From IMG/VR virus record IMGVR_UViG_3300012983_000038, positions 1 through 64,000 of that record: a DNA stretch of 64,000 nucleotides; one strand, written 5' to 3'. Shown here piece after piece: positions 10,698 to 40,592 of this stretch. A program made the position numbers and the translations under genes. The notes beneath the pieces are model-generated. The model did no database searches. It was not told where the DNA came from and saw only the letters and a program-made list of their open reading frames with translations. The number at the start of each line of letters is the position of its first letter. The first letter of the stretch is position 1. The DNA comes from a virus (taxonomy: Duplodnaviria; Caudoviricetes).

Positions 10698-10805
10698 ATG
10701 GGAGATTTAAAAGAAAAAACATTTACAGAGGGGAAAGAAAATTCTCAAGAGCAAGACAGTAAAGATAAGTCTGTATACAATCCATTAAAGGAGAGTAGTA
10801 AATAA
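10698..10805 (+). CDS. small ORF (35 aa, MGDLKEKTFTEG...)
   Basis: AAGGA upstream of ATG; carries KTFT, matching the head-protein motif; absent from the ORF track because of size. Confidence 0.4.
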   Translation: MGDLKEKTFTEGKENSQEQDSKDKSVYNPLKESSK

Positions 10806-10814
10806 AGTAATAAA

Positions 10815-10869
10815 GCCTACAAGAATACTGAAACAAGGTATTACGATTCGATTCACTTGTAGGCACTAA
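10815..10869 (+). ncRNA. 50-nt structured RNA motif, copy 1 (three-way junction with UUCGAU loop) plus ACUAA tail
   Basis: GCCUACAAG/CUUGUAGGC stem; covaries with the copies at 18805, 19885 and 57897. Confidence 0.8.
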
Positions 10870-10885
10870 TTTGGGGTGATATAAT

Positions 10886-12769: not shown

Positions 12770-12784
12770 TAAAGACGTGAAGAA

Positions 12785-12931: not shown

Positions 12932-12943
12932 AATTTAGGAAGG

Positions 12944-14095
12944 ATGATAGTTTTAAGGCAAAAAGAATATACTAGGGCTGAAAAAGAAGCAATGTTTCAA
13001 CTAATGAGGTTGACTAAGGGGTTTAAGTCATTACCTGAGTCATTAAATACTGTTGAAAATGCTACTAGATTTAAAAAGTTTTCAAATAGACTGGCAGAGT
13101 TTGCTAGAAAACCGTACCGTAAGATTAGTGCAAAGGATCTTAAGGAAATGAAGGGCTTTTTAAATGATATTGGAGCTGATAAGTTTGCTGATAATTTTGA
13201 ACCTATTATTAATAAGTACTATGGAAATAATAATATAGAGGCTTGGAAGAGACTGAGGCTTAGAGAAGAAAAGCTTCCAGCTAAAGCAATTGAGAATAGA
13301 AAAAATAGATTAACTAATAGGTCTGCTGATATTAAAAATTCTCTAGCAGAAGCAGACTCAGTCGCCAACAATTTTAAGTCAACTAAAGGTAAAAGTAGTA
13401 AGGAGATTTTTAGCAGTCCTGAAGGAAAGTTGATGAAGAATATTATAAAAGGAGAAACAGGCGGCATTAATCAACCAAGTATTCATTTTAATAAAGTTAA
13501 GGGTCGAAACAAATTATCTGATAAACTTACTAATGTCGCTATCAAAAGCGGCAGCGCTGGAGATTATCCAGAAAAATTAGTAAAAAAGCAAATAAAAAAG
13601 GACTTACGAGGAGGTAAAGATTTTTTTGCAGGAGATGGTCATGGCTATGTTTTTTTAAGTCATGCTAATCCGTCAATTCTTTCACATGAATTAGGGCACG
13701 GTAAGTCTTTTGCTAATTCAATTGCGGCAGGCACTCCTTTTAAGGTAGCGGTAGGTTCGCCTAAAAAACTTAGATCACATTTAGAAAAATCGGTGTCAAA
13801 AAGAGCTAGGGCGATATATGGACGTTTAGATAATTTATCAACTATTGCAGAAGAAAATATGGCCAATGTATACGGACGGGACATTATTAGAAAATATGGT
13901 GGAAAGAATGTAAATAAGCATTTAGCTGACTATGAAAAACTTGTAGATAATATTAATATGAAATCTTATTTGAGTGGAGCTAGACTCAATGATGTTAGAG
14001 AAAATGCTAGCATATTAAACAATATTAGAAGAAGAAGAGGAATGGTACAGCCTACTAATAGAAGACGGAAGGCAGTGACAGATTTAGAGAATTAG
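12944..14095 (+). CDS. basic putative head-cargo protein with HExxH zinc-metalloprotease motif
   Basis: N-terminal MIVLRQKEYT; SILSHELGH followed by EENMAN (gluzincin-like third ligand). Confidence 0.7.
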   Translation: MIVLRQKEYTRAEKEAMFQLMRLTKGFKSLPESLNTVENATRFKKFSNRLAEFARKPYRKISAKDLKEMKGFLNDIGADKFADNFEPIINKYYGNNNIEAWKRLRLREEKLPAKAIENRKNRLTNRSADIKNSLAEADSVANNFKSTKGKSSKEIFSSPEGKLMKNIIKGETGGINQPSIHFNKVKGRNKLSDKLTNVAIKSGSAGDYPEKLVKKQIKKDLRGGKDFFAGDGHGYVFLSHANPSILSHELGHGKSFANSIAAGTPFKVAVGSPKKLRSHLEKSVSKRARAIYGRLDNLSTIAEENMANVYGRDIIRKYGGKNVNKHLADYEKLVDNINMKSYLSGARLNDVRENASILNNIRRRRGMVQPTNRRRKAVTDLEN

Positions 14096-14105
14096 TCAAG
14101 TATTT

Positions 14106-14236
14106 TAAATATTTCTCCCTTTTTATAGAACAAAAATCATAGGGGGGGGGGAAATATTGATAATTAACAATACCCTCTATGATAATTAATAGATATGATA
14201 TTGGGATACGATTTCATTGAGGAAAGATTGTTTGCT
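14106..14236 (+). repeat. cassette leader repeat A (palindromic leader, G10, MILGYDFIEERLF coding start)
   Basis: Near-identical to 17245-17376, 18883-19013 and 19516-19639. Confidence 0.95.
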
Positions 14237-14598
14237 GCTATACAAAAAGTTGGGAAGACTGTTACAAATCCAGCAACTAAGGCAGCGCTGAAAAAAGCAA
14301 AAGCCACAAATACAAACAGTTTTCAGCAACCTTCTTGGTTTGGAGAAGCGATAAAGGATATGAAAAAAGGAGGAATTGATGGGAGGAAATATAAGGATGT
14401 AGGAATTTTTCCGCTGTAAGTAAGGTAGAGGCAATGGCACAATTTCGTAAGAGACTTAAAAAGGGTCCAGTAAAGGATGTAGGAATATTTTCAAAGCCAA
14501 AGCACGACCCAGATGTTAATTTGTTAATGTATGAGAATTATATCGGAGCGGATCCAGTAGTTACAAAAACAAAGAAATTGATCGGGCCACTGTACTAA
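14195..14598 (+). pseudogene. cassette A cargo gene split by a 1-nt frameshift (14195..14419 and 14434..14598)
   Basis: Adding one T in ATTTTTCC (~14405-14412) gives the continuous reading KDVGIFSAVSKVEAMAQFRK...KDVGIFSK...GPLY*. Confidence 0.55.
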
Positions 14599-14839: not shown

Positions 14840-16606
14840 ATGAAGAAAAGTAATTTAATTGAGAAGTTGTTCGGGTCATTTGCGCCTGGAGCATCTAGAG
14901 TTCCTTTAAGGAGTAACATAGTTAGGGGGTCTGGTGGAGGATATAAGCCGATAGGAGGTTCTGCCAGTTCTAGAGCTTTTGGTATGGATAAAAAGTCTCC
15001 GCTATTAGGTAACTCATCTCCATCTACTTTAATTAGTGGTTACTATGAGAGAGTAGCAGAACTTAAAGGGTATCAACTACTGGACATTTCTAAATTAGCA
15101 ACTAACTTTTTTTCAGACTATGTACAGAACTTTTTGACAGATGCTAGTAATGGTAATTTAGTTAGTATTATGGATGAAGATTCTAACTCTATCAATGAGC
15201 AGGTAACTGATAGATTGAATAATATATTAACTAAAGATCTAAACATAGTTAATTTTATAAAGAATCATTTGAACGACTATATCTATTTTGGAGAGTATTT
15301 TGGAATGATCTCTACTAGTCTAGATGAATTAGGTCACCTAAAATTCAGGATAGAGGAAATAAATGATCCAGTATCTGTAATAACTAAGAAAATTAGGTCA
15401 AAAAGTACTGGCAAGATGGAAGAGATTTATTTGGCAAAAGGGAATGAGGGAGGTATTTATGAAATTCCTAAAAATAGCGTTGTTTTTATATCTACTTCAA
15501 ACTTAAGACTAGTAAATGATCTGTCAGAAGATGATAGAGATAATTATAATACTAGTACTGGCAGTGGAAGTACTAAGGCAAATAAGGATGCTTCTAAGTT
15601 AAATGATATCTTCTCTAAAAATACTAATAATAAAATAGTAAAAATACAAGAAGAGGATCCAGATAGCAATAGAAGTAAGGTTTTGAAAGATGATGCTTAT
15701 ATTGCCTCAGAACCACTACTATATTCTCTAATATTGAAAGTAAAGGAGTTAGTTATTAAAGAGCTGTTGGTTTCTCTTCTTTCACTAAGAGATCTATCAA
15801 GTGTTCAATTATTTTTACTACAATTTGATAAATCTGTTCCATTAGAGACTGCCAATAATATCTGTGCTAAGGCTACTAAGCTTGCGAATAATACTAATGA
15901 ACTTGCATCCTTTTTAACAGCACAGTTTGATGCAATTTCTTTTATAGAAAATGCACTAACTCAGCCTGCAAAGTTTATACCTGACTATAACTCTTCTTTG
16001 GCTGCTAAAAATGCAATGTTGCCGTTAGATAAGTTGTCAGAGAAAATGATTGAGATTATGCAGATGTTAGATCATTGTAAGGCAAGCGTTTTAGGACCTC
16101 TAGGACTTCCATCTACTCTTATAGATTCTACATCTGGCAGTAAGTGGCAAGTTTTACAACAATCAGAGAGAGCTAATTCACGTGTAACTTTCTATATTAA
16201 TGGTATTAAGGAGTCAGTTACTAAATTAGTTTGTAATATTTATGAGATAATTTATAAGGAAGAGTTGGATCCTTCGAGAGTTACGCTGCATATCTGTGAA
16301 AAGACTTCAGTAGAATATAATAATCAGATAAATCAATCTGAGTCTATAAATGGAATGTTGACTAGTATTTCTCAGATGTTACAAAATAGTTTACAGATGT
16401 TAGAGGCATCAGCTCCTCTAATTAATCCAGAGGCATTTTTATCCTATTTGCAAAAATTAATTAAGGATATAGATCCAGATGCAGATTCTTTGATTAATGA
16501 AGAAACTACTACTATGTACATTAATTACTTGAAGGCTAAGGTTGGTGCTGGAATGGAACAAATGGGAGTAGATCCTAATACGATTTTTGGAGGAGAACAA
16601 CAATAA
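14840..16606 (+). CDS. portal protein (T4 gp20-like)
   Basis: Size (588 aa), position after terL and before the protease, helical; YIYFGEYF and LGLPSTL segments resemble portal motifs. Confidence 0.7.
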   Translation: MKKSNLIEKLFGSFAPGASRVPLRSNIVRGSGGGYKPIGGSASSRAFGMDKKSPLLGNSSPSTLISGYYERVAELKGYQLLDISKLATNFFSDYVQNFLTDASNGNLVSIMDEDSNSINEQVTDRLNNILTKDLNIVNFIKNHLNDYIYFGEYFGMISTSLDELGHLKFRIEEINDPVSVITKKIRSKSTGKMEEIYLAKGNEGGIYEIPKNSVVFISTSNLRLVNDLSEDDRDNYNTSTGSGSTKANKDASKLNDIFSKNTNNKIVKIQEEDPDSNRSKVLKDDAYIASEPLLYSLILKVKELVIKELLVSLLSLRDLSSVQLFLLQFDKSVPLETANNICAKATKLANNTNELASFLTAQFDAISFIENALTQPAKFIPDYNSSLAAKNAMLPLDKLSEKMIEIMQMLDHCKASVLGPLGLPSTLIDSTSGSKWQVLQQSERANSRVTFYINGIKESVTKLVCNIYEIIYKEELDPSRVTLHICEKTSVEYNNQINQSESINGMLTSISQMLQNSLQMLEASAPLINPEAFLSYLQKLIKDIDPDADSLINEETTTMYINYLKAKVGAGMEQMGVDPNTIFGGEQQ

Positions 16607-16619: not shown

Positions 16620-16937
16620 ATGGAAAACAAAGAAAATAAGAAACTCACTAAAGAGGAGAAGTTACAAAAGTTGGAAGAGGAGTTAGAGCTATTATCTAAA
16701 GGGAAAGTAACTGGTGCAGCATTGGCAGGGCTTGGAGGAGCGCTGTTAGGTGGAGGATATACTGCTGATTATTTAAATAGAACTCCAGGTCCTCGTCCAA
16801 GTAATCCTAATACCGCAAGAAACCTTAAAATTGCAGGAGCAATATCTATCCCTACTGGTGCAGCTTTAGTAGCTTATTCTTCCTATAAAAAGAAAAAACT
16901 GAAAGGAAGAAATGATAATAATAAGGAAGTGGACTAG
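16620..16937 (+). CDS. small membrane protein with glycine zipper
   Basis: GAALAGLGGALLGGG plus a second hydrophobic helix followed by a KKKK stretch. Confidence 0.75.
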   Translation: MENKENKKLTKEEKLQKLEEELELLSKGKVTGAALAGLGGALLGGGYTADYLNRTPGPRPSNPNTARNLKIAGAISIPTGAALVAYSSYKKKKLKGRNDNNKEVD

Positions 16938-17247
16938 GCTTTTTTCTTCAAGTGGAGATAACGTAGTAACCTCTAAAGATATTTTAATAGAGCAGATGAA
17001 GCAGCAGCGACAACTTATGCAGACAATTAGGCTTAAGGATAAACTCAGGGCTGAAGAAAGAAAGGAAAGAATGAGGTCTTTACAAAAAATTCAGAAAGCA
17101 AAACAAGAGGAGGACGAGCGAATTGTAAAAAGCATTACTAAAGCTGCAGAAGAATCTACTAATAATTCCGAAGGCATTAAAGCTAGGGCAATCAGTCTTT
17201 ATAAATCAAGATCTACGCCAGTGCCACCTGTGTCTATGAGTAATTAA
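16912..17247 (+). CDS. putative head-cargo coiled-coil protein
   Basis: N-terminal MIIIRKWTRLFS motif. Confidence 0.75.
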   Translation: MIIIRKWTRLFSSSGDNVVTSKDILIEQMKQQRQLMQTIRLKDKLRAEERKERMRSLQKIQKAKQEEDERIVKSITKAAEESTNNSEGIKARAISLYKSRSTPVPPVSMSN

Positions 17248-17376
17248 ATATTTCTCCCTTTTTATAGAAAACAAAAATCATAGGGGGGGGGGAAATATTG
17301 ATAATTAACAATACCCTCTATGATAATTAATAGATATGATACTAGGATATGATTTTGTAGAAGAAAGACTATATTC
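17245..17376 (+). repeat. cassette leader repeat B (G10)
   Basis: Near-identical to repeat A. Confidence 0.95.
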
Positions 17377-17815
17377 AGATTTATTAGAAGAGGAGAAATT
17401 GTTTGCATGGGCTCAATTGGCTAAGAAGGCAGGACTTAATGAAGCTGAGAAAAGGGCAGTAGGAGCAATGAGGAAAGGCGCAGCGAATAATTTATTTAAA
17501 ACACGTCCGGGCAAAGTATATCTCGGTAATGGACTCACAGGTGCCGACGCAATTCAAATCGAAGGTTTACAAGGACGTAATAATATAGTTGCGTTAGATA
17601 TGGCAAAAGAAATGGGAAAAGCTAAAGTACCAAAGGATATTGCAAAAGGATTAAAAGAATTATATCCACGCAATCCTTCTGAAAAAGAAAAACTTGCCAA
17701 AAGATTAATTGAAGAGACGATGGGAAAGCCGTTAGATAAGATTACTAGAAAAGATTTTGTTTTGTTTAGAGACAATATTGCCTCTGGCCTTAAGAAGATT
17801 GGTAGCATGCAGTAA
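17336..17815 (+). CDS. cassette B cargo protein (MILGYDFVEERLYS...EKLFA)
   Basis: Shared N-terminus, unique basic payload. Confidence 0.85.
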   Translation: MILGYDFVEERLYSDLLEEEKLFAWAQLAKKAGLNEAEKRAVGAMRKGAANNLFKTRPGKVYLGNGLTGADAIQIEGLQGRNNIVALDMAKEMGKAKVPKDIAKGLKELYPRNPSEKEKLAKRLIEETMGKPLDKITRKDFVLFRDNIASGLKKIGSMQ

Positions 17816-17930: not shown

Positions 17931-18761
17931 ATGTACATTAGAAGAAAAGTATTTTCCCTTATGGAAGATGTTAATGGAGATTTGAGATATTTTTCAACAA
18001 CCGATTATGACTATGATGATTTGTTGATGGAGCGTCTATATGCTGATCTTGAGGATGAGGATAGTGGTATTGGACGTCGTGCAGCTATTATTGGTGGTGC
18101 AGGTGTACTAGGTGCTGCAGGTGCTACAGGTATTGGAGCATATTTGAATAAAAAAGCAGCATACGATGCAGCTCTAGCAGGAAAGAAGAAGGGCGTAGAT
18201 TACCAGTTGTTGGAGCGCGACCTTAAAGATGCTGTCAAGAAACATAAAGATGCTATTTCTGGATTGAAGAAGACCAGAGTTAGCAAATATAAAGACCTTA
18301 ATAGTCTTAAGAAAATGGAAGGAGCTTATAATAATCTCGTAAGTGGAAAGGCAGATACTCTTTTAGGAGAAAAATTAACTAAGAGTGAAATAGAAAACCT
18401 TAAAAATAACGGTTTCAAAAAATTTGCTAAAGAAATCAGTGATAGATCAAGATCTGCTCAATTGATGGATCAATACGAACGCGAATTATTAGAGACAGGA
18501 AAGTCAAATAAAAAATTAGCAGCTGAGATTAAGAAGCTAGGATATCATGAATATGAGGGACTTAATGCTAATGCATTTAAGAATAAGGAAGCTGCAGAAA
18601 AAGCATTGAACAAGTTGACCAAGAAGTACGAAACTGAGGCTGCTAAGGCAGGAAGAGAAGGCATGTGGAAGTTCGGAAAGAAGGGTGCAGCAGGTATTGC
18701 GCTTGGAGGTCTAGGTCTAGCTGGTGCTGCAGCATTGGCAACTCGTCGTAGAGATGAATAA
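17931..18761 (+). CDS. putative head-cargo protein with two glycine-zipper helices
   Basis: MYIRRKVFS...RYFS...ERLYA; GGAGVLGAAGATGIG and GAAGIALGGLGLAG. Confidence 0.85.
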   Translation: MYIRRKVFSLMEDVNGDLRYFSTTDYDYDDLLMERLYADLEDEDSGIGRRAAIIGGAGVLGAAGATGIGAYLNKKAAYDAALAGKKKGVDYQLLERDLKDAVKKHKDAISGLKKTRVSKYKDLNSLKKMEGAYNNLVSGKADTLLGEKLTKSEIENLKNNGFKKFAKEISDRSRSAQLMDQYERELLETGKSNKKLAAEIKKLGYHEYEGLNANAFKNKEAAEKALNKLTKKYETEAAKAGREGMWKFGKKGAAGIALGGLGLAGAAALATRRRDE

Positions 18762-18804
18762 TCTTTACAATTAGTAGAGAAGAGCTTATAGCCTTTTATA
18801 AAAA

Positions 18805-18859
18805 ACTTACGGGAAAGTTGAAATAAGACTTTACGATTCGATTCACCCGTAAGTACTAA
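18805..18859 (+). ncRNA. 50-nt structured RNA motif, copy 2
   Basis: ACUUACGGG/CCCGUAAGU stem (compensatory changes versus copy 1), AAAGUU/GACUUU stem, UUCGAU loop, ACUAA. Confidence 0.8.
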
Positions 18860-18882
18860 TAAAATATTGACAGAAAATGCTT

Positions 18883-19013
18883 TAAATATTTCCCCTTTTT
18901 TATAAAACAAAAATCATAGGGGGGGGAAATATTGATAATTAACAATACCCTCTATGATAATTAATATAGATATGATACTAGGATACGATTTTATAGAAGA
19001 AAGACTATTTAGT
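18883..19013 (+). repeat. cassette leader repeat C (G8)
   Basis: Near-identical to repeat A. Confidence 0.95.
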
Positions 19014-19382
19014 AGTTGGGGAGTATTAAGTAAACAATTAAAGGATCCTACAGCCAGAGCATACGTAAAAAGTGTTAGGGATGAGCAAGCAAGGATATTG
19101 CGAGATAGACTAAATAGCGCACGGGAAAGCAGGCTTAAAGATGTTAAGCAAGTGTTGGAAAATCCAAGGCTGAGTAAAAAAGATAAAAAATTTATTCTTG
19201 GAAGTAAAGAAGGACTGTTTAATAGTGCAATCGATAACATATACGCAAGTGGGGCACTTAGAGATTCTATTAAAAATAACAGAAGCGCAAATAAAAATAT
19301 CTATAGAAAACAGCTAGACCTTTACAGGAAATTGGCAGATCAGGAAGCAGATAAGGCATTTAAATTAGCGAAGCTGGTTTAA
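18972..19382 (+). CDS. cassette C cargo protein (true start MILGYDFIEERLFS at 18972)
   Basis: Start set by homology to the other cassettes; the track's start at 18954 lies inside the leader repeat. Confidence 0.85.
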   Translation: MILGYDFIEERLFSSWGVLSKQLKDPTARAYVKSVRDEQARILRDRLNSARESRLKDVKQVLENPRLSKKDKKFILGSKEGLFNSAIDNIYASGALRDSIKNNRSANKNIYRKQLDLYRKLADQEADKAFKLAKLV

Positions 19383-19515
19383 TTTGATGATAATAATCTG
19401 CTGAGAAACTACTCACTTCAATTTCTAGAAGAAGAACAACATAGTACTAAGGCAGCTGCGAAGATAGCGAGAAGAATTTAGTACTAATAAAATATCGACA
19501 AAAAAGAATAACTAG

Positions 19516-19639
19516 ATATTTCTCCCTTTTTATAGAACAAAAATCATAGGGGGGAAATATTGATAATTAACAATACCCTCTATGATAATTAATAGATATG
19601 ATACTAGGTAGTGATTTCATTGAGGAGAGATTGTTTGCT
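19516..19639 (+). repeat. cassette leader repeat D (G6)
   Basis: Near-identical to repeat A. Confidence 0.95.
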
Positions 19640-19837
19640 GTACATCATTATAAAGGTTTAACGAAGCCGCAGGCTGATAATTTACGAAAATGTAGATCTG
19701 AGTTAGCAAGTAGTCTTAATAAAATAAGAAATAAGTATAGAGGTGATCAAAATATGTTAGACCGCTATAAAAATGGAGTTAAAAGTATTGCAGAGGACCA
19801 CGATGCGTATTTGATTAGAAAGGGATCAATACTCTAA
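19598..19837 (+). CDS. cassette D cargo protein (MILGSDFIEERLFA)
   Basis: Shared N-terminus, unique payload. Confidence 0.85.
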   Translation: MILGSDFIEERLFAVHHYKGLTKPQADNLRKCRSELASSLNKIRNKYRGDQNMLDRYKNGVKSIAEDHDAYLIRKGSIL

Positions 19838-19884
19838 ACATGGAACAGGTCTTCGTGTTGGCCTTGGTTATTAATAAACAGAAA

Positions 19885-19976: not shown

Positions 19977-21230
19977 ATGGAAGTAAGAGTAAGATGTTGC
20001 AGTTTGACAAAGCCTGCAGCAGATGGTTCATTGATAGGAGAATCAGTTGTACGAGATTACCTAAATTCAGAAGATTATCGAAGAGCCGTTGAAGGAAAAG
20101 TTATGTTAGGTTACTTAACACACAGGGGTAGATCTTTAGAGACTATGCCAGATAATGTAGGTAATGTAGCAGCACTTAAGAAAACAATTGGTAAAGATGA
20201 CGCTGGATTATGTGTAGTAGACGGGGCTCCAACTTTTACTCACTATGTAAAAGAGCTTTATATAGATGAAGTTCCGGGAGAGGGACCTTGGTTGATGGCA
20301 GTAGTTCATATATTTAACCCTAAAGATTTTGATGAACGTGCTGCAGAAAATATTAAGAGGCTCCGTGCATTAATAAAGGCAGGAGTAGCGCTATGTTGTA
20401 GTTTAGTGGTAGTAGCGTATTGGGACTCTCAGACGAATGGTACTGATATTTGCCGTCAGATCAAAAGCATTAAGAGCTTAGATTGGACAGCTAATCCTAG
20501 TTTCGGTCCTCTGGCTAGAATTACGGAAGTTATCAGTGATGGAGAAGATGAAAGAGAGTTTTCAGAAGTAGAGAGAGATGATAGATACTCACTAAAGATG
20601 GGTGAAATGAAGGTAAAATCTTTCTCGAACTTAGAAAAATTTGGATTAGGAGGAGTACCAAAGACATCAAAGGTTAATGGTTACTACACTCAATTGAAAG
20701 TTAAGCAATATTCTACGATGAGTGATGTAGATATTGTGTCAGAGGGAGAAACTTCAGCGGGATATTCTCAAAAGTCGTTCACAGCAATGTCAGTAAATGA
20801 ACGAATTAGGTATGCGAAGTTAAGTCCTAGAGAGCGATTTAGAAGATTAATACTTGATTATCGACAATCTATTAAGACTCAAGGAGGAGTTAGTAAGATT
20901 GATAAAGATACGTTAAAAACTATGAAGTCATTATTTGCCGGTGATGTATTGGAGATTATGAAAACAGTAACTCCGATGGTCTTAGAAGGAAAAAATTTAA
21001 TGACTTTGTTGAATGCAGGATCTTTAGGTGTTCAAGTAAGAAAGGCGTGTCAAGCCATGTACTTGCCATATAAACAGGCATTGGTAGAAGTAGGTAAGCA
21101 GGGATTCGTAAGTAAGCAGAGATTTTCAAAGATTACTGCAGCGTATTCCGAGTTTATCAGTTCATTGCAAGACTATGTATTTGGAGCTGCGCCTATTGAG
21201 ATTGATAATGAGTTAAAAGAGGAGGAGTAA
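19977..21230 (+). CDS. prohead (maturation) protease, T4 gp21-like, with C-terminal extension
   Basis: GYLTH (His), CCSL (Ser) and SLDWTANPSF (Asp) parallel the gp21-type GELxH / VSSR / DxVxxPS motifs; lies upstream of the scaffold and capsid genes. Confidence 0.8.
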   Translation: MEVRVRCCSLTKPAADGSLIGESVVRDYLNSEDYRRAVEGKVMLGYLTHRGRSLETMPDNVGNVAALKKTIGKDDAGLCVVDGAPTFTHYVKELYIDEVPGEGPWLMAVVHIFNPKDFDERAAENIKRLRALIKAGVALCCSLVVVAYWDSQTNGTDICRQIKSIKSLDWTANPSFGPLARITEVISDGEDEREFSEVERDDRYSLKMGEMKVKSFSNLEKFGLGGVPKTSKVNGYYTQLKVKQYSTMSDVDIVSEGETSAGYSQKSFTAMSVNERIRYAKLSPRERFRRLILDYRQSIKTQGGVSKIDKDTLKTMKSLFAGDVLEIMKTVTPMVLEGKNLMTLLNAGSLGVQVRKACQAMYLPYKQALVEVGKQGFVSKQRFSKITAAYSEFISSLQDYVFGAAPIEIDNELKEEE

Positions 21231-27936: not shown

Positions 27937-28194
27937 ATGATACTAAATCATATAGAATCTAAGTACTTTAGTAAAAAAGGCAGACAAGGATCTAATAATA
28001 GAGGATCTAATAACTCCTCTACAAAGTCAAATAGAAAGAAAGGTAATTTGCAAAAAAATACTTCTGTTATGGAGTTCAAAGACTTGCCGTGGGGAAAAAT
28101 TGCATTAGGTACAGCTATAGCAGGTGCAGGTATTGCGGGGGCATATTATCTAACAGATAAATATAAGAGAGAAAGAAGTAGTTATCTAACTTAA
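27937..28194 (+). CDS. small putative cargo protein with one glycine-zipper helix
   Basis: MILNHIESKYFS; GTAIAGAGIAG. Confidence 0.8.
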   Translation: MILNHIESKYFSKKGRQGSNNRGSNNSSTKSNRKKGNLQKNTSVMEFKDLPWGKIALGTAIAGAGIAGAYYLTDKYKRERSSYLT

Positions 28195-30414: not shown

Positions 30415-30822
30415 ATGATATCATTTAGAAAAAAATCCACGAAGGAAGAGGATTTAATGCCAGAAGCTATTAAATACCTAACTGAAACAGAGGGGAAAGG
30501 TTTCAATATAATAACACCGGATAAAGCAGAGGAAGTATCAAGAAAGAATTCCAAAGCTATGGTACTTGTGTCATTTGTGAAGAACGATGACGGAAAGTAT
30601 CAGATTCAAGTAAAAGATAAAGAGCTTTATAGATATACGAGAAAATTGTTAGAGCAATATTTTAGAATGGAAATTGTAGACGTAGACTCAACTAATAGAG
30701 TTATAACAGCTACATGTAATAAACTAGGAATAGCTCTTTCAATCATAGACGTACTACGAGAGAAGTATGATTTTTCTGTAGTAGTAAGTAAAAAGGATTA
30801 TTTAATTTATAAAAATAGATGA
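30415..30822 (+). CDS. hypothetical protein (MISFRKK start)
   Basis: Coupled ORF with a cargo-like leader. Confidence 0.75.
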   Translation: MISFRKKSTKEEDLMPEAIKYLTETEGKGFNIITPDKAEEVSRKNSKAMVLVSFVKNDDGKYQIQVKDKELYRYTRKLLEQYFRMEIVDVDSTNRVITATCNKLGIALSIIDVLREKYDFSVVVSKKDYLIYKNR

Positions 30823-31397
30823 TAGAGTTTAGACAAAAATCTTTTACTGAATGTGAAGCAATGAGGAGTTTATTTGTTGAACTATGTAAAAGAGGGGGTG
30901 ATAGACAAAAATGGAAAATTATAGATAAGACGTCTCTATTGCCTATCTTAAAAGGGAATAACGTAGTAATAGAGAGATTTGTTATTTCTACTTCATTGTT
31001 TAGCAGAGATAAGTATAGAATGTATCTTAAAATAGGTGCAAAAGCCAAGATGCCTGATGAAGTTAGATTACCTCAGCAAGTTTATGATAAAAGTTTAGGT
31101 AATGTGTATGTAAAGCTATCTACTGGATCAACTAAATTCCCCAAAGACTTTAATAACTTTGATAATAATAATGGTGAGAAAAATAAAAAAAATAAAGAAA
31201 ATAGTGAATTTTTCAGAGCCAGTTACGACCCTCGATTAGATATCAAGTACGAAGTTAGTGAACTTTTAGGAGATGCTATTAAATACAGTAAAAAAGAGCG
31301 TTCATTGGTATTGGAATTTTCATCCATTGGAAAAGCTATTGATGCACTGAATATTCTCCCTTTTGGAATTGACTATAATATTTACTTATTAGTATAG
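30819..31397 (+). CDS. putative head-cargo protein
   Basis: MIEFRQKSFT. Confidence 0.8.
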   Translation: MIEFRQKSFTECEAMRSLFVELCKRGGDRQKWKIIDKTSLLPILKGNNVVIERFVISTSLFSRDKYRMYLKIGAKAKMPDEVRLPQQVYDKSLGNVYVKLSTGSTKFPKDFNNFDNNNGEKNKKNKENSEFFRASYDPRLDIKYEVSELLGDAIKYSKKERSLVLEFSSIGKAIDALNILPFGIDYNIYLLV

Positions 31398-31398
31398 T

Positions 31399-31620
31399 AT
31401 GATAATAGTATTAAGAAAGAACTTCACTAATATCCTGAATACTAACGGAGTTGCAGGATTTATAAGGGGCAGAAAGTATGATATGGATATGGATAGGTTA
31501 GGAAGAGGTGAATACAAGAGGCAATTAGGCTCTGCCAGCTTAGAGTTGTCAAGAGAAATGCGGAATTTAAATAAAGAGTTAAATAACGGATTAATGGGAA
31601 AATGGCAAGATACAGATTAA
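31399..31620 (+). CDS. small putative head-cargo protein
   Basis: MIIVLRKNFT. Confidence 0.75.
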   Translation: MIIVLRKNFTNILNTNGVAGFIRGRKYDMDMDRLGRGEYKRQLGSASLELSREMRNLNKELNNGLMGKWQDTD

Positions 31621-31928
31621 AAAGAAAAACGTTCGGAGTAATGGATGGCATTACTAATGGCGTAAGTAATTTAGCAGGAAATACTTTGAGTGCAGTTGGA
31701 GGTGCTATAAACTCTACGCCAGCGGCAATTGCAGGAGGACTGATAGGTGGATCTACTTTAGGATCTACTATAGGAACTGCCCTTACTGGAATGGGAGGTG
31801 TAGGAGGATCACTTGCCGGAGCACTTAGTGGCCCTGTCGGCTGGTTAATTGGAGCAGGATTAGGTGCCGCAGCAGTTAGGGGTCTTGGTAAGGGACTTAA
31901 AGAAATGGGGCAAGATATAAAATATTAA
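31602..31928 (+). CDS. glycine-zipper cargo protein
   Basis: MARYRLKRKTFG; long GxxxG array. Confidence 0.85.
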   Translation: MARYRLKRKTFGVMDGITNGVSNLAGNTLSAVGGAINSTPAAIAGGLIGGSTLGSTIGTALTGMGGVGGSLAGALSGPVGWLIGAGLGAAAVRGLGKGLKEMGQDIKY

Positions 31929-31941
31929 ACTTGAGAATACT

Positions 31942-33087
31942 ATGATTAAGTTCAGACAGAAGATATTCTTTGCCCCCCTTGCTGCCATAGGCGGAGGAAG
32001 TGCTATTATGGGTGCGTTTAATATAGGATCAACTGCAATAGGTGTAGGCGGCATGGTACAGGCTCATAATCAAGGAAAGCAGCAAGAGGAAATGAATGAT
32101 CAGAATCTTAAGATGCAGGAGCGCCAAGCTAAGCAAATGGAAGAGCAAATGAAGGCACAAAATAAAGCTCTGCAGGCTATTGCTGACAATGCTGCTAAGA
32201 ATCCGTATGCAGCGCAGCAAACTTTAGATATCATGAGTATGAAAAGTTACAGTAATAATGCTATGAGAAGGAATAGTAAAGGAGTCAGATTAAAACTGTT
32301 CGGTGTTCCTTATAAAAACTATTTATCTGCAGCTAAAGAGGTAGGTAATATTCTATTTAAAAATTATAAAGGAACATTTACTGATATGGCGCTCATGGGA
32401 GTAGGTACTGTAGGAGGATCTTACTTAGTAGATAGATATATTCAAAGTGATAAAGCTAAGAAAAACGATGCAGTAGTAGGTACTAGAGCATGGGAGAAGC
32501 AGCAAAGAGCTAGACAATCGTCTTATTCAGAAACTAAGACTAAGGAGATAGGTGGAAGCGGAGCTCTAAAAAAATATGGAGGATCGGTATTAGGAGGCGC
32601 TGCATTTTCTGTATTTCCGCTGATATCTTATAAAATTAGTGAAGGTTCTAAAAAGAATCAGGTAAATTCTACAAATGCTTCTCACTATGAAACTCCACAT
32701 AATTCTGTAACATTAGGGCAGAAAGCTTATGCTGCACCTGCTTCAAAAGGATTTTTTGGTAATTTGTCCAATATGTGGGGAAATTTCAAGAAACACCCTG
32801 GACAAAGTGTATTAGGTTTTATAAATCAATTAAATATGGGTGGAGGACATAAGAAATCTTTTGAAGTAGCAAAACAGTTTCAAAACTCAAATAATAAGCT
32901 AGTCAAGCAGGCAGGTGACTGGCTACAGAAGCATCCAAAAACACTAATCGCAGCAACAACTGTTCCTGCCGCAATAGCTATGAGTGGAGGTATGAGTTTA
33001 GGAGAGAAGCCAACTAAGGCGATTTTAAGAAGTGTCGATCGAGATGCCTTTGCATACGAAAGATCACAAGAACAATTAGTTAATTAA
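31942..33087 (+). CDS. multi-segment glycine-rich cargo protein (possible polyprotein)
   Basis: MIKFRQKIFF; internal KSYS, KLFG and KAYA sites separate hydrophobic helices. Confidence 0.8.
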   Translation: MIKFRQKIFFAPLAAIGGGSAIMGAFNIGSTAIGVGGMVQAHNQGKQQEEMNDQNLKMQERQAKQMEEQMKAQNKALQAIADNAAKNPYAAQQTLDIMSMKSYSNNAMRRNSKGVRLKLFGVPYKNYLSAAKEVGNILFKNYKGTFTDMALMGVGTVGGSYLVDRYIQSDKAKKNDAVVGTRAWEKQQRARQSSYSETKTKEIGGSGALKKYGGSVLGGAAFSVFPLISYKISEGSKKNQVNSTNASHYETPHNSVTLGQKAYAAPASKGFFGNLSNMWGNFKKHPGQSVLGFINQLNMGGGHKKSFEVAKQFQNSNNKLVKQAGDWLQKHPKTLIAATTVPAAIAMSGGMSLGEKPTKAILRSVDRDAFAYERSQEQLVN

Positions 33088-33104
33088 ATTAAATTTTATA
33101 AGTA

Positions 33105-33548
33105 ATGAGTACATTCGTATTGAAAAGAAAAAGCTATACTGTATATGACAGAACAGATGCTTTGAAGAAAATGAAAGATTCTGACGTGTTAGCAGAGAGA
33201 GAGCAGAAGAAAGTTGGTTATGGGGATGCACTAGGCTCTGCTGCAGGAGGCGCTCTAATTGGTGCAGGAATTGGTGCAGGAGGATATGCACTTACTAAAG
33301 GTATCACTGGAGGTTTTGGCAATCTAGCGAAAAATGTATCTGCAGGAGGATTTAAAACTATTGGAGGTATTGGAGCAGGAGTAGGTGCACTTGCAGCAGG
33401 AATTAGTGCATTAAGGAGAAGAAGCAAGAAGAATGAAGATGTAGAGTTCTATAATGATAGATTGCAATATGCACAGAGACAAGCAAGGCGTAGAGAGCAT
33501 CACGACTGGAAATCTAACATGACTCAAAGAGAAGGATACTCTTTTTAA
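33105..33548 (+). CDS. glycine-zipper cargo protein
   Basis: MSTFVLKRKSYT; GSAAGGALIGAGIGAGG and GGIGAGVGALAAG. Confidence 0.85.
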   Translation: MSTFVLKRKSYTVYDRTDALKKMKDSDVLAEREQKKVGYGDALGSAAGGALIGAGIGAGGYALTKGITGGFGNLAKNVSAGGFKTIGGIGAGVGALAAGISALRRRSKKNEDVEFYNDRLQYAQRQARRREHHDWKSNMTQREGYSF

Positions 33549-33560
33549 TTCTAAAAAATT

Positions 33561-34295
33561 ATGATTAAATTTTTCGAAAACAGATTTTCTATAGAAGACG
33601 GAGGATATTCAGGTAACAAAAGAAAGGTAAAGTCTGGAGGTTATGGAAAAGCAATGCTCTTAGGTGGTGGCACTGGTGCAGGAATAGGTGCACTTGCTGG
33701 ATTAGGAACACCAACAACAGGAGTTTCAGCACTAATAGGAGGAGGTATTGGAGCAGGATTAGGAGCATGGTTTAATTGGCTAGCTAATATAGCAGATAAG
33801 TCCGAGTTTAATACCAGTGCAGCACGTTCTTGCAGTTCTTATAAAATTATTCAAGCTATTGAAGATGAGTATTCTAACGATGACCCTGACCTGAGCGAGA
33901 ATACTGTTACTACTTCGACAGTATCCTCAAAAGGCAATGTTGTAACTTCTTCTAGTAGAGTATTGAATAAGAAGAAAGATAATATCTCTCCTAAAGGCTT
34001 ACTTTATACTATAGATGAGAATCCTAGAAAGCACTTAATTAGTATGATGTTGCAAGGTAATGTACTAGTTATTTACTTAAATGAGCTAAATAAAAGGGAG
34101 TTATCTATTGTAAATGAAATATTAGATGATTATTGTTTTTCTTATAGGAATGCTGACTATTCTTCACAACAATGCGGAAAAAATAGTTATGTAATTGATC
34201 TTAAAATATTAGATAACTTAGAGGCAATAGTACCGCTTACATTGATGGAAAGTGGACTTAAAATAAATATATTAACTAGTAGGTCTAGGAAATAA
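33561..34295 (+). CDS. glycine-zipper cargo protein, paralog of 34369 and 38863
   Basis: MIKFFENRFS; GGGTGAGIGALAGLG...GGGIGAGLG; shared C-terminal domain. Confidence 0.85.
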   Translation: MIKFFENRFSIEDGGYSGNKRKVKSGGYGKAMLLGGGTGAGIGALAGLGTPTTGVSALIGGGIGAGLGAWFNWLANIADKSEFNTSAARSCSSYKIIQAIEDEYSNDDPDLSENTVTTSTVSSKGNVVTSSSRVLNKKKDNISPKGLLYTIDENPRKHLISMMLQGNVLVIYLNELNKRELSIVNEILDDYCFSYRNADYSSQQCGKNSYVIDLKILDNLEAIVPLTLMESGLKINILTSRSRK

Positions 34296-34368: not shown

Positions 34369-35301
34369 ATGGTATATTTTAGACAAAAAAATTACGGAAG
34401 CACTCCCAGCAGTCTATTTGAATTTCTAAAAACTCCATCAGGGGCAATTTCCGCAACGGCATTAGGCGTCTCAACTGCTAACATGTCTAGTAATATAGTT
34501 AGACATAATACTGACAAAAAATATCAAACTAATCAGTTAAATGCGATAAGAAATTTATCACGATCATTAGATGCCGTTGATACATCTATTAATAGGTATG
34601 CTGCAGCTAAAGACATCTTAGAAGGTAGTTATGCTACTAATAAAGACTTAGATAAGCTCTTAAAAACTTTATATGATAGTAGAGGAGGTCGTAGAAAAGG
34701 AAAGAAAAAGAAGTTATTTAGTAGAAATGACTTTATCGGAAATGTATTTACAGGAAGTGGACTTGGAGCAAGTATAGGTGCTGCCGTAGGAAAGTTCCTG
34801 CCAAATAAAGTTACTACTACATGTGCAATAGGAGTAGGTACTTTAGTAGGGGCATCTCTAGGGCTAGTTTATTCTATCATAAAAGATATAAGTAGTAAAT
34901 TGAATATAGCAAGTACCGTAGATAATAGACTAATGAGGGGTATTATTGAGCAATTGAAAGGTATTGGACTAGTAGAAGGAAAAGATTTTACTAGAGACCC
35001 TAAAAAGGCTACGGAATTAAGAACGAAGGTCAGTATAGTAGTTAGTAGAGATTCTGGAGATTTGAGTTTAATAATTAATGCAGTCTCTGATGATAGGTTA
35101 AAGAAAACTTTAGACAGTATAATTAATTTACTTAAAAAATCTAGTGGAGTTTCTATAAAAAATAATGAAAAACTGTCTGATAGATACAATGATATTACAA
35201 TTACTACTGTAGAGAGCCCGACAAACGCTAAGCTAATTGCTGAAATAATTAAAGGATTAGTTAAAGAAGGGTACCCAGTTTATATACTAGAAGTAGGTTA
35301 A
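34369..35301 (+). CDS. two-part glycine-zipper cargo protein
   Basis: MVYFRQKNYG; internal KKLFS precedes GSGLGASIGAAVG...GVGTLVGASLG. Confidence 0.85.
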   Translation: MVYFRQKNYGSTPSSLFEFLKTPSGAISATALGVSTANMSSNIVRHNTDKKYQTNQLNAIRNLSRSLDAVDTSINRYAAAKDILEGSYATNKDLDKLLKTLYDSRGGRRKGKKKKLFSRNDFIGNVFTGSGLGASIGAAVGKFLPNKVTTTCAIGVGTLVGASLGLVYSIIKDISSKLNIASTVDNRLMRGIIEQLKGIGLVEGKDFTRDPKKATELRTKVSIVVSRDSGDLSLIINAVSDDRLKKTLDSIINLLKKSSGVSIKNNEKLSDRYNDITITTVESPTNAKLIAEIIKGLVKEGYPVYILEVG

Positions 35302-37785: not shown

Positions 37786-37797
37786 TAGTTTTAGTTT

Positions 37798-38529
37798 ATG
37801 GAAAAGACATTGTTAGTAGACCTAAAGAAGAAGATGTTTATTAGAAGTGCGCTATTAGCATTGGATTCTCTAGATGAACTATTGAATATTAATGATTACT
37901 TGTCTCCTGATGAAATTTTATTGGAGATAATAAAAAAGGCATTACGTGAATATGAAAACACCTTGCCTTTAGTTTTAGATATGAATTTAAACAGGAATCA
38001 GATGGAGTCTTGTTCAGGTAAAGCTGGATACGGGGAGTTCAAATCTAATTTCACATTATATTTAAATTGTGCAATAGATGAGTCACAAATAGTATTAGTA
38101 CCTAGAAGTTGTCCCTTATGGAGATGTGCAGGTTCTTATCCATTAGCGGGATCATTTACTTACTTTAGTGATTATCAAGAGCCGTATGTATTTTTAGGAG
38201 ATTTACCGACACAGGATCAATTTTCAGTTAGAGCTCTGTGTGCAAGACCAATTATACCTGATTTCTTACCAGATAAATCATTCAATCCTGTTAGTGAAAA
38301 GGCTGCAGTATATTGGATGAACGTTGAAGAAGGAGCCAAAGGAAGTTATTTTTTAGACTTATGTATGGTTCACTTATTAGATTACTTGAGACAATTGAAA
38401 TCCTCTATCATGTTACACTCAATGCCAGTAGATGTAATGTCAAACTTAGATCCAGCATATCAAGAGTTAAGAGCTAGATGTGATCACTTTGCACTTCAAT
38501 CTGGTTGGGATGGACAATTATTGATTTAA
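37798..38529 (+). CDS. putative neck/head-tail adaptor (gp13-like)
   Basis: Size and position; helical N-terminus (EIIKKALREYE) and C-terminal helix; inferred. Confidence 0.5.
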   Translation: MEKTLLVDLKKKMFIRSALLALDSLDELLNINDYLSPDEILLEIIKKALREYENTLPLVLDMNLNRNQMESCSGKAGYGEFKSNFTLYLNCAIDESQIVLVPRSCPLWRCAGSYPLAGSFTYFSDYQEPYVFLGDLPTQDQFSVRALCARPIIPDFLPDKSFNPVSEKAAVYWMNVEEGAKGSYFLDLCMVHLLDYLRQLKSSIMLHSMPVDVMSNLDPAYQELRARCDHFALQSGWDGQLLI

Positions 38530-38544
38530 TAAAGAAAGCAGTAT

Positions 38545-40188
38545 ATGTCACATAGTAGTTACAGTTTTCAAAGAAAGCTATTTAATGAATCTATTATTAG
38601 TAAATCATTAAAGTATGCCAGGCACAGAATAAGTAATAAGAGTAGTAAGAAAAACAATAAAAATAGTATTAATCCAATTGAAGTAATAAGTGATAAAATT
38701 GATTATTACATAGATACTCCTACTGATGCAATTTCTGACTGGATATTACCTGTAGATGATAATGAGACAGATGGATTGAAAAGTAAACTAAAGAATAGAG
38801 TTGATGACTCTTTTAGTGATAAACTAAGAGTATTAGATAAACTAAAGCAGTTAAAAGATAGTATGATTAAATTTAGACAAAAAGAGTGTTCTATCAAAGA
38901 TGGGTACTATACAGGTCCGAAGGATTTAGATAAAGTTCCTGGAGCTTTTGATATAATAGGTAAAGGTGCTATTGGAGGGTCTATAATAGGAGGTATAGTT
39001 GGCAAATTAAGCAAAAATGATAGGGACAGTGGATTTGATGATGACTATATATCCAAAGGTGCTAAGGTAGGAGGCCTTGCTGGTGTTGCAGGTGGAATTG
39101 CGCTCAAACTATTTCTAAATCATCTACACAATCCAATGAAGGAAGTAGAGTATAAAGAAGTTGACAGGCATCTTAGGAGAGAGTTTGGAATGTATAGAGT
39201 AGGGGGAGTTGTTGTAGGAGATAGTATTTCGAACAGGGCAACATTGAGTGATAAGTTTAGCTTTGATGACAGAAATGTAACTGATTATAAAATCAATATT
39301 GCAATAGCTAATAATAAAGTAGTATTGTACACTTTCGGTGCGAGTGATGAGGATATTAAGAAATTAGACAGCTCATTGGATAATTACTGCAAGAAGTATC
39401 AAGGAATGAAGTATTCATCTAAGTTAATAAATCCTAATATGAATTCTTATTCTGTTGATATTACATTTACTAATTATCAAGTAATAGCTAATTTTATAAT
39501 GGAAATATCTAATTCATTGATGACAAAGATCAATCTACTAAATGACGGAGCTTCTATAGTTCTTAATAGACTTAAAGACTACAGAGAGTGGGTCGACAAT
39601 GACAGCAATGATGAAGATGTCTTTGAAACACCTCAACAATCCAGTAAATTATTTAGTAGTTTCATAGACTCAACAAGATTAAATAAGTCCAGTATAGCTA
39701 GCATATTAAGTCAAAGCGGATATGAGTTTCTAAACAAGTCAATGTTCCAGCAAGGGTCTACTATTAAAGGGTGCGCTTCTGCAGCAATACTAAAGGCAAT
39801 GGTCGCAGCTGCCAAATCTATTAAGAACAATGAACTAGTTAGATTAGGAGCTCCTGCTAGTAGATATAAGTTTGGAACATCTTATTTAAAATCAACTTTA
39901 GATAAGCTTTATTACACTAAGGGATTGCATTATACTATAGGAGATAAGAATAGTCCTAATAATTTTAGCATGAGTGAGGGAAGATTTTTCATTACAATTG
40001 CCAAAAATAGTAAGGATAGAGAGACAGTAGATAGTAAATTCTGGAATGGATTAAAGTCTGTTGTACATAGGAATGATTTAGGAGAGGTTATTTCTTATAC
40101 ATATACAATTAAGTCTAGAGAAGAATTTGAGATGATCTTGAAGAAATTAATGTCCACTAAAGTAAAATTTAACTTATTTGAGGCATGA
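38545..40188 (+). CDS. fused cargo protein; second module starts at 38863 (MIKFRQKECS) with a glycine zipper
   Basis: N-terminal QRKLFN; internal MIKFRQKECSIKDGYYTG matches 33561 MIKFFENRFSIEDGGYSG. Confidence 0.8.
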   Translation: MSHSSYSFQRKLFNESIISKSLKYARHRISNKSSKKNNKNSINPIEVISDKIDYYIDTPTDAISDWILPVDDNETDGLKSKLKNRVDDSFSDKLRVLDKLKQLKDSMIKFRQKECSIKDGYYTGPKDLDKVPGAFDIIGKGAIGGSIIGGIVGKLSKNDRDSGFDDDYISKGAKVGGLAGVAGGIALKLFLNHLHNPMKEVEYKEVDRHLRREFGMYRVGGVVVGDSISNRATLSDKFSFDDRNVTDYKINIAIANNKVVLYTFGASDEDIKKLDSSLDNYCKKYQGMKYSSKLINPNMNSYSVDITFTNYQVIANFIMEISNSLMTKINLLNDGASIVLNRLKDYREWVDNDSNDEDVFETPQQSSKLFSSFIDSTRLNKSSIASILSQSGYEFLNKSMFQQGSTIKGCASAAILKAMVAAAKSIKNNELVRLGAPASRYKFGTSYLKSTLDKLYYTKGLHYTIGDKNSPNNFSMSEGRFFITIAKNSKDRETVDSKFWNGLKSVVHRNDLGEVISYTYTIKSREEFEMILKKLMSTKVKFNLFEA

Positions 40189-40592
40189 TTATATTAAGAA
40201 GTAAGTTTTTCTCAAAGTACATCAATATAAATGATATGATAAACAAGCTCGATAAGGAGGACTTGATTGATTATGATATTAGTTATAGTATTCCGAGTGA
40301 TTGTATTTCTATAAGTGCTGATTTGGATAACTTTAGAATATTTATACCGTACGAAGATGAATTTGCGCAGTATGATATAGATGATTTTATTAGGGAGTTT
40401 GGAGTTACTTATAGGACAAAAACTGTTAGAGATCGAGACTTGTTTATATTGACTGTTATAGGTGGAAGGATAAATGAGAAACAGTTTTATAAGCTATTAA
40501 AATTCTTGATAACTGAGTATAAGTATTGCAATATATTACTTGACAAGAATGAATATGATAGGCTGATTAATAAAAAGAAAAAACGCAAATAA
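40185..40592 (+). CDS. putative head-cargo protein
   Basis: MIILRSKFFS. Confidence 0.8.
   Translation: MIILRSKFFSKYININDMINKLDKEDLIDYDISYSIPSDCISISADLDNFRIFIPYEDEFAQYDIDDFIREFGVTYRTKTVRDRDLFILTVIGGRINEKQFYKLLKFLITEYKYCNILLDKNEYDRLINKKKKRK

Follow-up and report, generated by a model that had tools for sequence, protein, structure and literature searches.

A basic-x-aromatic motif shared by leaders, scaffold, capsid and a gp21-fold protease: a candidate head maturation code in uncultured jumbo phages

In bacteriophage T4, 65 residues are removed from the capsid protein gp23, and in the jumbo phage phiKZ about 19 head proteins are processed. The T4 prohead protease gp21 has the catalytic pair H85/S140 (PMC12991175), and the T4 internal proteins, diverse and basic, are united by a capsid targeting sequence (CTS) alone (PMC3012670). 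Here, we compare with these systems the first 64 kb (64,000 nucleotides, hereafter the window) of the IMG/VR virus record IMGVR_UViG_3300012983_000038. A first-pass annotation of the window had noticed that about 20 head-region N-termini, the scaffold, the protease and the capsid share a [K/R]-x-[F/Y]-[S/T/A/G] motif and had proposed for it the logic of T4, capsid addressing and maturation together, with a basic-x-aromatic cleavage rule. We consider it probable that the motif is the maturation code of a gp21-fold protease, the product of gene 19977 (genes are named after their first nucleotide), the specificity of which would have shifted from x-x-Glu to [Lys/Arg]-x-[Phe/Tyr] with Ser, Gly, Thr or Ala as the next residue. 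The motif behaves as a protease site in the protease linker, the scaffold, a zinc-ribbon core protein, the capsid and the leaders, while the addressing half of the proposal is suggestive only.

Between positions 12944 and 40592, 19 open reading frames (ORFs) start, once their starts are corrected, with a leader of 6 to 13 residues. The last three of these are [K/R]-x-[F/Y], the next residue is S, G, T or A, and the most frequent form is M-I-x-F-R-Q-K-x-F↓S (the arrow marks the predicted scissile bond, with P1 before it and P1' after it; Table 1). This number adjusts the 18 of the ORF call, with the true start of the ORF annotated from 18954 fixed at 18972 by alignment of the cassettes described below and the portal gene 14840 included. 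All 18 N-termini listed by the first-pass annotation were found at their coordinates, and the near-match starts that it had placed at 28206, 31942, 33561 and 38545/38863 are likewise present, but the portal, with its 11-residue leader, had been overlooked. Using the ORF call, which missed the 18972 start, the motif falls within the first 16 residues of 18 of the 33 ORFs in the region and of 1 of the 50 elsewhere in the 97-kb record (Fisher p, 2e-8; binomial p, 4e-18), against a composition-based expectation of 3.5% per protein. Shuffling residues 2 to 16 with composition kept gave 2.2 matches on average and at most 8, versus the 18 observed, and control motifs were rare in the same 33 ORFs (reversed motif, 2/33; aliphatic P1, 1/33; acidic P3, 0/33). 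A chance origin of the enrichment is excluded. The sole match outside the region (57972) is probably due to chance, since it is missing from the orthologue in G001, a relative of ca. 400 kb with terminal repeats that is rated 100% complete. In G001 itself, the leader was found on 23 of the 59 ORFs of a virion module at 149 to 204 kb versus 10 of the 439 elsewhere (Fisher p, 2.5e-16), the latter falling within chance expectation. As the first-pass annotation had stated, the sheath (35326) and the tube (50846) have no leader.

The protease was modeled with AlphaFold2 (AF2) from a 29-sequence alignment (A1), giving a predicted local distance difference test score (pLDDT) of 73.5. Residues 1 to 189 of the model matched T4 gp21 (5jbl) with a VIA Z of 12.6 over 133 residues and a root mean square deviation (rmsd) of 2.8; the best three Foldseek matches were 5jbl chains, and the next structural matches were herpes assemblins (Z, 6 to 8). 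Among 45 divergent homologues, only A14, D16, S18, H49, R52, D75, S142 and W149 were invariant. A local hhalign match puts His49 onto T4 His85, and His49/Ser142 is the likely catalytic pair, the equivalence of the Ser being drawn from spacing and the model; His89 is not invariant in the homologues, and the third member of the triad is not established. The identity given to this gene from the start is thus borne out by the gp21 fold and the invariant His49/Ser142. According to the model, it is a gp21-fold enzyme, placed in a separate sequence family because its sequence similarity to gp21 is not significant. Pfam and PHROGs gave no match for the protease and nothing useful for the scaffold, the capsid and most leader proteins, and sequence searches of the PDB gave no match for the protease, the capsid or the sheath.

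What ties the motif to this enzyme is its linker (residues 190 to 270), which is gappy and variable and yet keeps four conserved sites, R-E-F-S at 193, K-S-F-S at 214, K-Q-Y-S at 243 and K-S-F-T at 266, precisely those reported by the first-pass annotation, with F195, S196, K214, F216 and S217 invariant. Along similar lines, remote full-length homologues (E values of 1e-25 to 1e-50) have 2 to 6 copies of the motif right after the catalytic domain. The gene order 19977, 21230, 22151, 24646 is kept in seven related loci, the protease adjoining the scaffold and capsid genes. Judging from these sequences, the 19977 product very likely cleaves at the motif. The signal conserved at leaders and linker is [KR]-x-[FY]-[STAG]; no x-x-E signal, whether I/L-x-E or S/A/G-x-E, is conserved at either. 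A Glu specificity in a shifted register, that is, [STAG]-x-E after the aromatic residue, was also considered and rejected, as there is no consistent Glu past the motif. The remote relatives also include proteins of ca. 165 amino acids (aa) that match the catalytic domain only and others of 250 to 350 aa that match the C-terminal helical domain only (e.g., clusters P0285, P0299 and P0301; P0326 and P0335); they may be fragments at contig ends or point to lineages in which the protease is split.

The product of 22151, which lies between the protease and capsid genes, is a putative scaffold by gene position and composition. We counted 17 motif matches in it, 1 N-terminal and 16 internal, in agreement with the ca. 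16 copies noticed before (internal-site enrichment p, 1e-9), and its orthologues have 11 to 16 sites. Within the same gene, positions 23192 to 24025 hold three tandem units of ca. 113 aa (339 to 342 nucleotides [nt], 80 to 86% identical), each with three motif sites. In the capsid protein, both positions reported by the first-pass annotation do hold the motif, although residues 36 to 39 read K-M-F-S and not K-T-F-S, as residues 59 to 62 do; the K-T-F-S site is kept in 120 of 120 homologues and the 36-39 site in 119 of 120. Residues 42 to 55 vary, and from Ser62 onward, the protein is near-invariant, which is the pattern expected of a boundary between propeptide and mature protein, so that Ser62 is the predicted mature N-terminus. 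As for the gene assignments themselves, those of protease, capsid, portal and sheath stand on fold or profile evidence, that of the scaffold on position and composition only. The capsid matched an annotated capsid protein of Escherichia coli phage IME392 (hhalign probability, 96%; E value, 5e-9), the Atlas look-alikes of the portal were T4-type portal clusters, and the sheath and the tube-like protein had weak Pfam/PHROGs matches only.

The leaders are conserved, and the proteins behind them are not alike. Leaders are kept on the orthologues in seven related loci (that of the portal is kept in G001), and in two remote contigs, genes neighboring the protease begin with short leaders ending in K-T-F↓S or K-S-F↓S. 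The mature parts are mutually unrelated, forming 17 BLAST groups among 18 proteins here and 23 among 23 in G001. Leader proteins are also basic, with a median pI of 9.8 versus 5.3 for the others in the record and of 9.7 versus 5.7 in G001 (Mann-Whitney p, 1e-4 and 1e-6, respectively), and for 10 of the 18, G001 has no counterpart, while it has a homologue of every core structural gene between 10886 and 59066. These traits, which match those of the T4 internal proteins, suggest that the leader proteins are cargo. Describing them as an unusually large cargo set, as the first-pass annotation did, was an overstatement when set against the processed head proteins of phiKZ.

Selection acts on the peptide and not on the DNA, given that Ser at P1' draws on both codon families (TCN and AGY) and the P3 residue on AAA, AAG, AGA and AGG, and that in four cassettes, 14 leader codons differ synonymously with the peptide unchanged. 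These cassettes (14102-14256, 17243-17397, 18879-19033 and 19505-19659) are four copies of an element of ca. 155 nt, in which ca. 95 nt of near-identical noncoding upstream DNA and a 13-codon leader are joined to unrelated payloads, the similarity stopping at the cut site. The noncoding part contains an inverted pair of C-rich and G-run segments and a sigma70-like TTGATA...TATGATAAT stretch, and the whole looks like a promoter/5' untranslated region-plus-leader cassette. Leaders also differ from internal sites upstream of the shared core: with the sequences aligned on the aromatic residue, 39 of 41 leaders versus 26 of 55 internal sites have a hydrophobic residue at P6 (p, 2e-7), and 25 of the 41 versus 11 of the 55 have a basic one at P5 (p, 5e-5). 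The difference is significant at P4 too, and internal sites lie in acidic surroundings. Finally, the 30415 family keeps the first half of the leader, M-[I/V]-x-F-R-K-K, with no aromatic-small site, in seven of the seven related loci that cover the gene.

Together, these observations are consistent with a scheme in which the protease would free itself inside the prohead by cutting its own linker at the four sites, in the manner of herpes pUL26 at the R-site, would dice the acidic scaffold and the zinc-ribbon core protein, would remove capsid residues 1 to 61 and would strip the portal and the small basic proteins of their leaders. The scissile bond would have Phe/Tyr before it (P1) and the small residue after it (P1'), a placement adopted because the P3-x-P1↓Ser register matches sites of T4 (I/L-x-E), SPN3US (A-x-E, with Ser preferred at P1') and herpes assemblins (x-Q-A↓S). 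The upstream half of the leader (hydrophobic P6, basic P5/P4) might act as a T4-CTS-like address, recruiting small basic proteins to the acidic core made of scaffold, where they would remain in the head with the DNA; the hints are the P6/P5 features particular to leaders, the 30415 family, the promoter-plus-leader cassettes and the basic character and rapid turnover of the cargo, and we give this half of the scheme about an even chance. Delivery of the cargo into the host cell would follow by analogy only. A more ambitious and rather doubtful extension is that of a two-part portable tag common to uncultured gut jumbo phages that make up a very large clade, in which the address would load any protein, the K/R-x-F/Y↓S cut site would release it and recombination at the cassettes would bring in new cargo. 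Purely as speculation, the switch from Glu to an aromatic residue at P1 might let the phage evade host sensors of the head-protease cutting rule, such as the CBASS loops reported to be tripped by T4 gp21.

Several points weigh against this scheme. The hhalign match to gp21 is not significant (probability of 1.5% over a short local match), leaving the protease assignment to the predicted fold, and the AF2 model of the capsid is poor (pLDDT, 50), with phage capsids as its best structural matches and the P1 capsid at a Z of 9.3 but an rmsd of 12.9, which supports that assignment weakly. P3 is not always basic, being Val in the scaffold leader of G001, Leu in the near-match at 28206 and Asn in that at 33561. 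The position of the bond after Phe/Tyr, rather than after the small residue, is taken from analogy, and the features specific to leaders could have their origin in the constraints that a substrate faces at an N-terminus, with no address involved. No GenBank phage is related, so that there is no cultured model. In addition, G001 leader genes occur among tail and fibre genes as well (188 to 204 kb), a pattern compatible with head cargo only on the condition that gene position carries no information; calling these proteins a head-region set is true of the window but is not a rule. That part of G001 (L017-L018, 188264-203710) holds several small basic leader proteins of ca. 150 aa amid tail/fibre genes and not beside head genes.

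The most serious competing explanation, possible although we think it unlikely, takes the motif as a cut site and no address: the leaders would be simple propeptides, the basic cargo would enter otherwise, e.g., by electrostatic binding to the acidic scaffold, and the extra leader features would answer only to the requirements of the protease at a free N-terminus. Cargo and scaffold (pI 4.1) do have the opposite characters that this calls for, the P3-x-P1↓P1' core is the sole element common to all classes of sites and most SPN3US propeptides are long, with no defined address role (PMC10052503). On the other hand, the differences between leaders and internal sites at P6, P5 and P4 are significant, the 30415 family retains the first leader half with no cut site at all seven covering loci, cassettes join promoter and leader to unrelated payloads and the comparable 10-residue leader of T4 is a sufficient address (PMC3012670). 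If there were no cleavage, the motif could be a linear docking motif for a common partner (the inner surface of the capsid, the portal or a chaperone), with the N-termini kept. Its shortness and its disordered, acidic or N-terminal contexts are typical of linear motifs, and cleavage is read here from sequence. However, the motif sits where gp21/assemblin systems cut (protease linker, scaffold and the variable/invariant boundary of the capsid), its P3-x-P1 register with a small P1' fits known sites of this protease fold, and identity between cassettes and between orthologues stops precisely at it, all of which makes docking improbable. A signal at the nucleotide level, in translation initiation or some transcript feature, could also make gene starts alike, as might be thought from the ca. 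95 nt of near-identical DNA upstream of the four cassettes and from the lack of a clear Shine-Dalgarno sequence in most leader genes. We give this hardly any credence, considering the two Ser codon families at P1', the four Lys/Arg codons at P3, the synonymous variation of the cassette coding parts with the peptide kept and the presence of the same peptide motif deep inside the scaffold, capsid and protease genes.

Cleavage by a host enzyme has to be weighed as well. The cysteine protease Prp removes a 9-residue N-terminal extension from ribosomal protein L27, in which the motif is MLxx(D/N)LQ(F/L)F'A(S/H)KK. It also removes the leaders that two proteins of staphylococcal phage 80alpha, capsid and scaffold, carry; its cut falls between Phe and Ala/Ser (PMC9405229). 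The format is similar, a leader of ca. 9 to 14 residues ending in Phe and cut before Ala or Ser, but the resemblance does not extend to the sequence: (D/N)-L-Q is absent, P3 is Lys/Arg and not Gln, and the consensus has a hydrophobic P6 and basic P5/P4. The 16 internal sites of the scaffold and the conserved sites of the linker point to the phage's own enzyme, and 80alpha uses Prp for want of a prohead protease of its own (PMC9405229), while the phage of the window has one. A Prp gene (PF04327) was not found in the record (G000) or in G001 to G003, the complete relative of ca. 400 kb included. Furthermore, the predicted hosts of the possibly related Jug phages are Bacteroides/Phocaeicola (PMC12880540), and the phyla listed with a long L27 do not include Bacteroidota (PMC9405229). 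We regard cleavage by a Prp-type protease as very improbable and continue with the phage-encoded gp21-fold enzyme as the preferred agent.

The table lists the coordinates of the leader and near-leader genes together with those of the protease, core, scaffold and capsid.

Table 1. Leader-bearing, near-match and candidate head maturation genes of the window
Feature	Coordinates	Strand	Properties
HExxH protein	12944..14095	+	Basic, 383 aa; 9-aa leader K-E-Y↓T; second site at residue 44
Cassette copy 1	14102..14419	+	ca. 95 nt conserved upstream; 13-aa leader R-L-F↓A; 74-aa basic payload; gene 14195-14419
Portal	14840..16606	+	588 aa; 11-aa leader K-L-F↓G; second site at residue 45
Basic protein	16912..17247	+	111 aa; 11-aa leader R-L-F↓S
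Cassette copy 2	17243..17815	+	Conserved upstream DNA; 13-aa leader R-L-Y↓S; unrelated 159-aa payload; gene 17336-17815
Basic protein	17931..18761	+	276 aa; 8-aa leader K-V-F↓S; more sites at residues 19 and 35
Cassette copy 3	18879..19382	+	Conserved upstream DNA; 13-aa leader R-L-F↓S; true start 18972
Cassette copy 4	19505..19837	+	Conserved upstream DNA; 13-aa leader R-L-F↓A; 79-aa payload; gene 19598-19837
Prohead protease (by predicted fold)	19977..21230	+	417 aa; catalytic domain 1-189; linker 190-270; helical C-terminal domain ca. 273-402
Zinc-ribbon core protein	21230..22135	+	301 aa; 6-aa leader K-L-F↓S; 6 internal sites, kept in relatives
Putative scaffold	22151..24565	+	804 aa, pI 4.1, 29% Asp+Glu; 11-aa leader R-L-F↓S; 16 internal sites
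Major capsid protein	24646..26106	+	486 aa; motif at residues 36-39 and 59-62
Basic protein	26601..27188	+	195 aa; 10-aa leader R-L-Y↓S; paralogue of 27301
Basic Gly-rich protein	27301..27861	+	186 aa; 8-aa leader R-N-Y↓S
Basic protein	27937..28194	+	85 aa; 11-aa leader K-Y-F↓S
HExxH basic protein	28206..29204	+	332 aa; near-match leader L-R-Y↓S
30415 family member	30415..30822	+	M-I-x-F-R-K-K start, no aromatic-small site; same form in 7/7 related loci covering the gene
Conserved protein	30819..31397	+	192 aa; 9-aa leader K-S-F↓T
Protein	31399..31620	+	73 aa; 9-aa leader K-N-F↓T
Basic Gly-rich protein	31602..31928	+	108 aa, 25% Gly; 11-aa leader K-T-F↓G
Basic protein	31942..33087	+	381 aa; near-match leader K-I-F then Phe; 4 internal sites
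Basic protein	33105..33548	+	147 aa; 11-aa leader K-S-Y↓T
Gly-rich protein	33561..34295	+	244 aa; near-match leader N-R-F↓S
Basic protein	34369..35301	+	310 aa; 9-aa leader K-N-Y↓G
Protein	38545..40188	+	547 aa; near-match start K-L-F then Asn; relic leader K-E-C↓S at residue 107 (nt 38863)
Protein	40185..40592	+	135 aa; 9-aa leader K-F-F↓S; downstream of the sheath gene

The relic leader of 38545 lies at the position of the true N-terminal leader in the G001 orthologue. The two HExxH proteins (12944-14095 and 28206-29204) share only a zincin-type S-I-L-[S/A]-H-E-L-G-H motif, and the second has a weak Peptidase_M91 match; both may be packaged, putative zinc metalloproteases. At 31602-34295, basic proteins rich in glycine (up to 25% Gly) form a cluster; most of them have a leader, and G-x-G-A-G-x-G-A-L segments (repeat family D4) recur in them. 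Elsewhere in the window, three 58-nt hairpin-forming repeats with compensatory-looking stem changes (10812-10869, 18802-18859 and 19882-19939) lie between late genes and may be a terminator or RNA element. The products of 41042-48301 (2,419 aa, with a gelsolin-repeat match) and 52648-56148 (1,166 aa, with a phage tail lysozyme domain), which have no leader, are probable tail or baseplate giants.

The record (97,239 bp; GC content, ca. 33%) has a CheckV completeness of 26%, which implies a phage of ca. 370 to 400 kb, and close relatives of its capsid gene were found on contigs as long as 400,901 bp. The protease and the capsid have homologues in metagenomic assemblies only, many of them on contigs of 300 to 400 kb, and a profile search with the protease against 1.84 billion representatives gave 231 clusters at 50% identity. 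By tblastn with the 19977 protease and two remote homologues as queries, no relative was found among GenBank phages. In size and habitat, the window phage looks similar to the "Jug" gut phages, which have genomes of 360 to 402 kb and predicted hosts in Bacteroides or Phocaeicola; the paper describing them mentions fragmented protease and portal genes (PMC12880540). Habitat is a hint only, coming from DNA sequencing runs labeled as sheep or gut metagenome that contain less than half of the sampled words; no RNA run was among the matches listed. An IS200/IS605-type TnpB-like ORF (1890-3053, 387 aa) was considered as a clue to the host and was uninformative, its relatives being mixed (an unclassified metagenome-assembled genome at 65%, Anaeromicropila at 44% and Paludibacteraceae at 38%).

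If the reading of the motif as a maturation code is true, an aromatic-P1 specificity class would be added to the gp21/assemblin fold, the described phage members of which, as far as we found in the literature, cut after Glu. The processed head proteome of a widespread clade of uncultured 350- to 400-kb animal-gut phages would become readable from sequence, with ca. 20 to 25 proteins per genome flagged as probably capsid internal, among them the two putative zinc metalloproteases and the glycine-rich basic proteins. A 9-residue tag for loading and release could, in that case, also serve the engineering of cargo delivery.

T4, with its gp21 protease, its core of gp22, gp67 and gp68, the capsid protein gp23 and the internal proteins IPI-III and Alt, offers a close parallel. 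The catalytic His of gp21 and that of the 19977 protease are aligned within the same fold, the gene order is protease, core/scaffold, capsid in both, and one motif would serve both the dicing of the scaffold and the removal of a capsid propeptide of ca. 60 residues. In T4, too, the cargo is diverse and fast changing, with only the leader conserved (PMC3012670), and short N-terminal leaders on unrelated basic proteins end in the protease motif. Packaging driven by the leader has been demonstrated in T4 and is a possibility here. The two systems also differ in specificity, since gp21 cuts after Glu at I/L-x-E (PMC12991175) and P1 here is Phe/Tyr with Lys/Arg at P3. T4 has ca. 4 leader proteins versus ca. 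19 to 25 here, the portal carries a leader only in the present system, and the 19977 protease has a long linker, a helical C-terminal domain and negligible identity to gp21.

With the jumbo phages phiKZ, 201phi2-1 and SPN3US (proteases gp175 and gp245), the window phage has in common its size class and the processing, predicted in our case, of many head proteins including the portal by an auto-processing protease, with multisite propeptide cuts and a preference for Ser at P1' (PMC10052503). Their motif is (S/A/G)-x-E or A-x-E, however, most of their propeptides are 111 to 254 residues long in contrast to the uniform leaders of 6 to 13 residues found here, and no sequence relationship to proteins of the window is detectable. 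Herpes pUL26, made up of protease, R-site, linker, scaffold domain and M-site, belongs to the same fold class (Z, 6 to 8). Both enzymes start with the protease domain, continue with sites of self-cleavage (predicted here) and end in a noncatalytic C-terminal domain, and pUL26 cuts before Ser/Thr in the P3-x-P1 register that is also predicted here, e.g., at Y-L-Q-A↓T and V-Q-A↓S (PMC4498786). The P1 of pUL26 is Ala where an aromatic residue is found here, the third triad member is not established in the 19977 protease and the C-terminal domain of the latter has no detected homology to the scaffold. The Prp system of 80alpha resembles ours in that the capsid and scaffold proteins of a phage carry a short leader, removed by a cut between its final Phe and Ala/Ser (PMC9405229), and differs in using a host cysteine protease with a (D/N)-L-Q-(F/L)-F motif, at N-terminal sites only, in a phage with no prohead protease. 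On our best reading, then, the logic of prohead maturation is the known one of T4, phiKZ and herpesviruses, and what is new is a specificity for an aromatic P1 and a basic P3 together with a uniform short leader on ca. 19 proteins.

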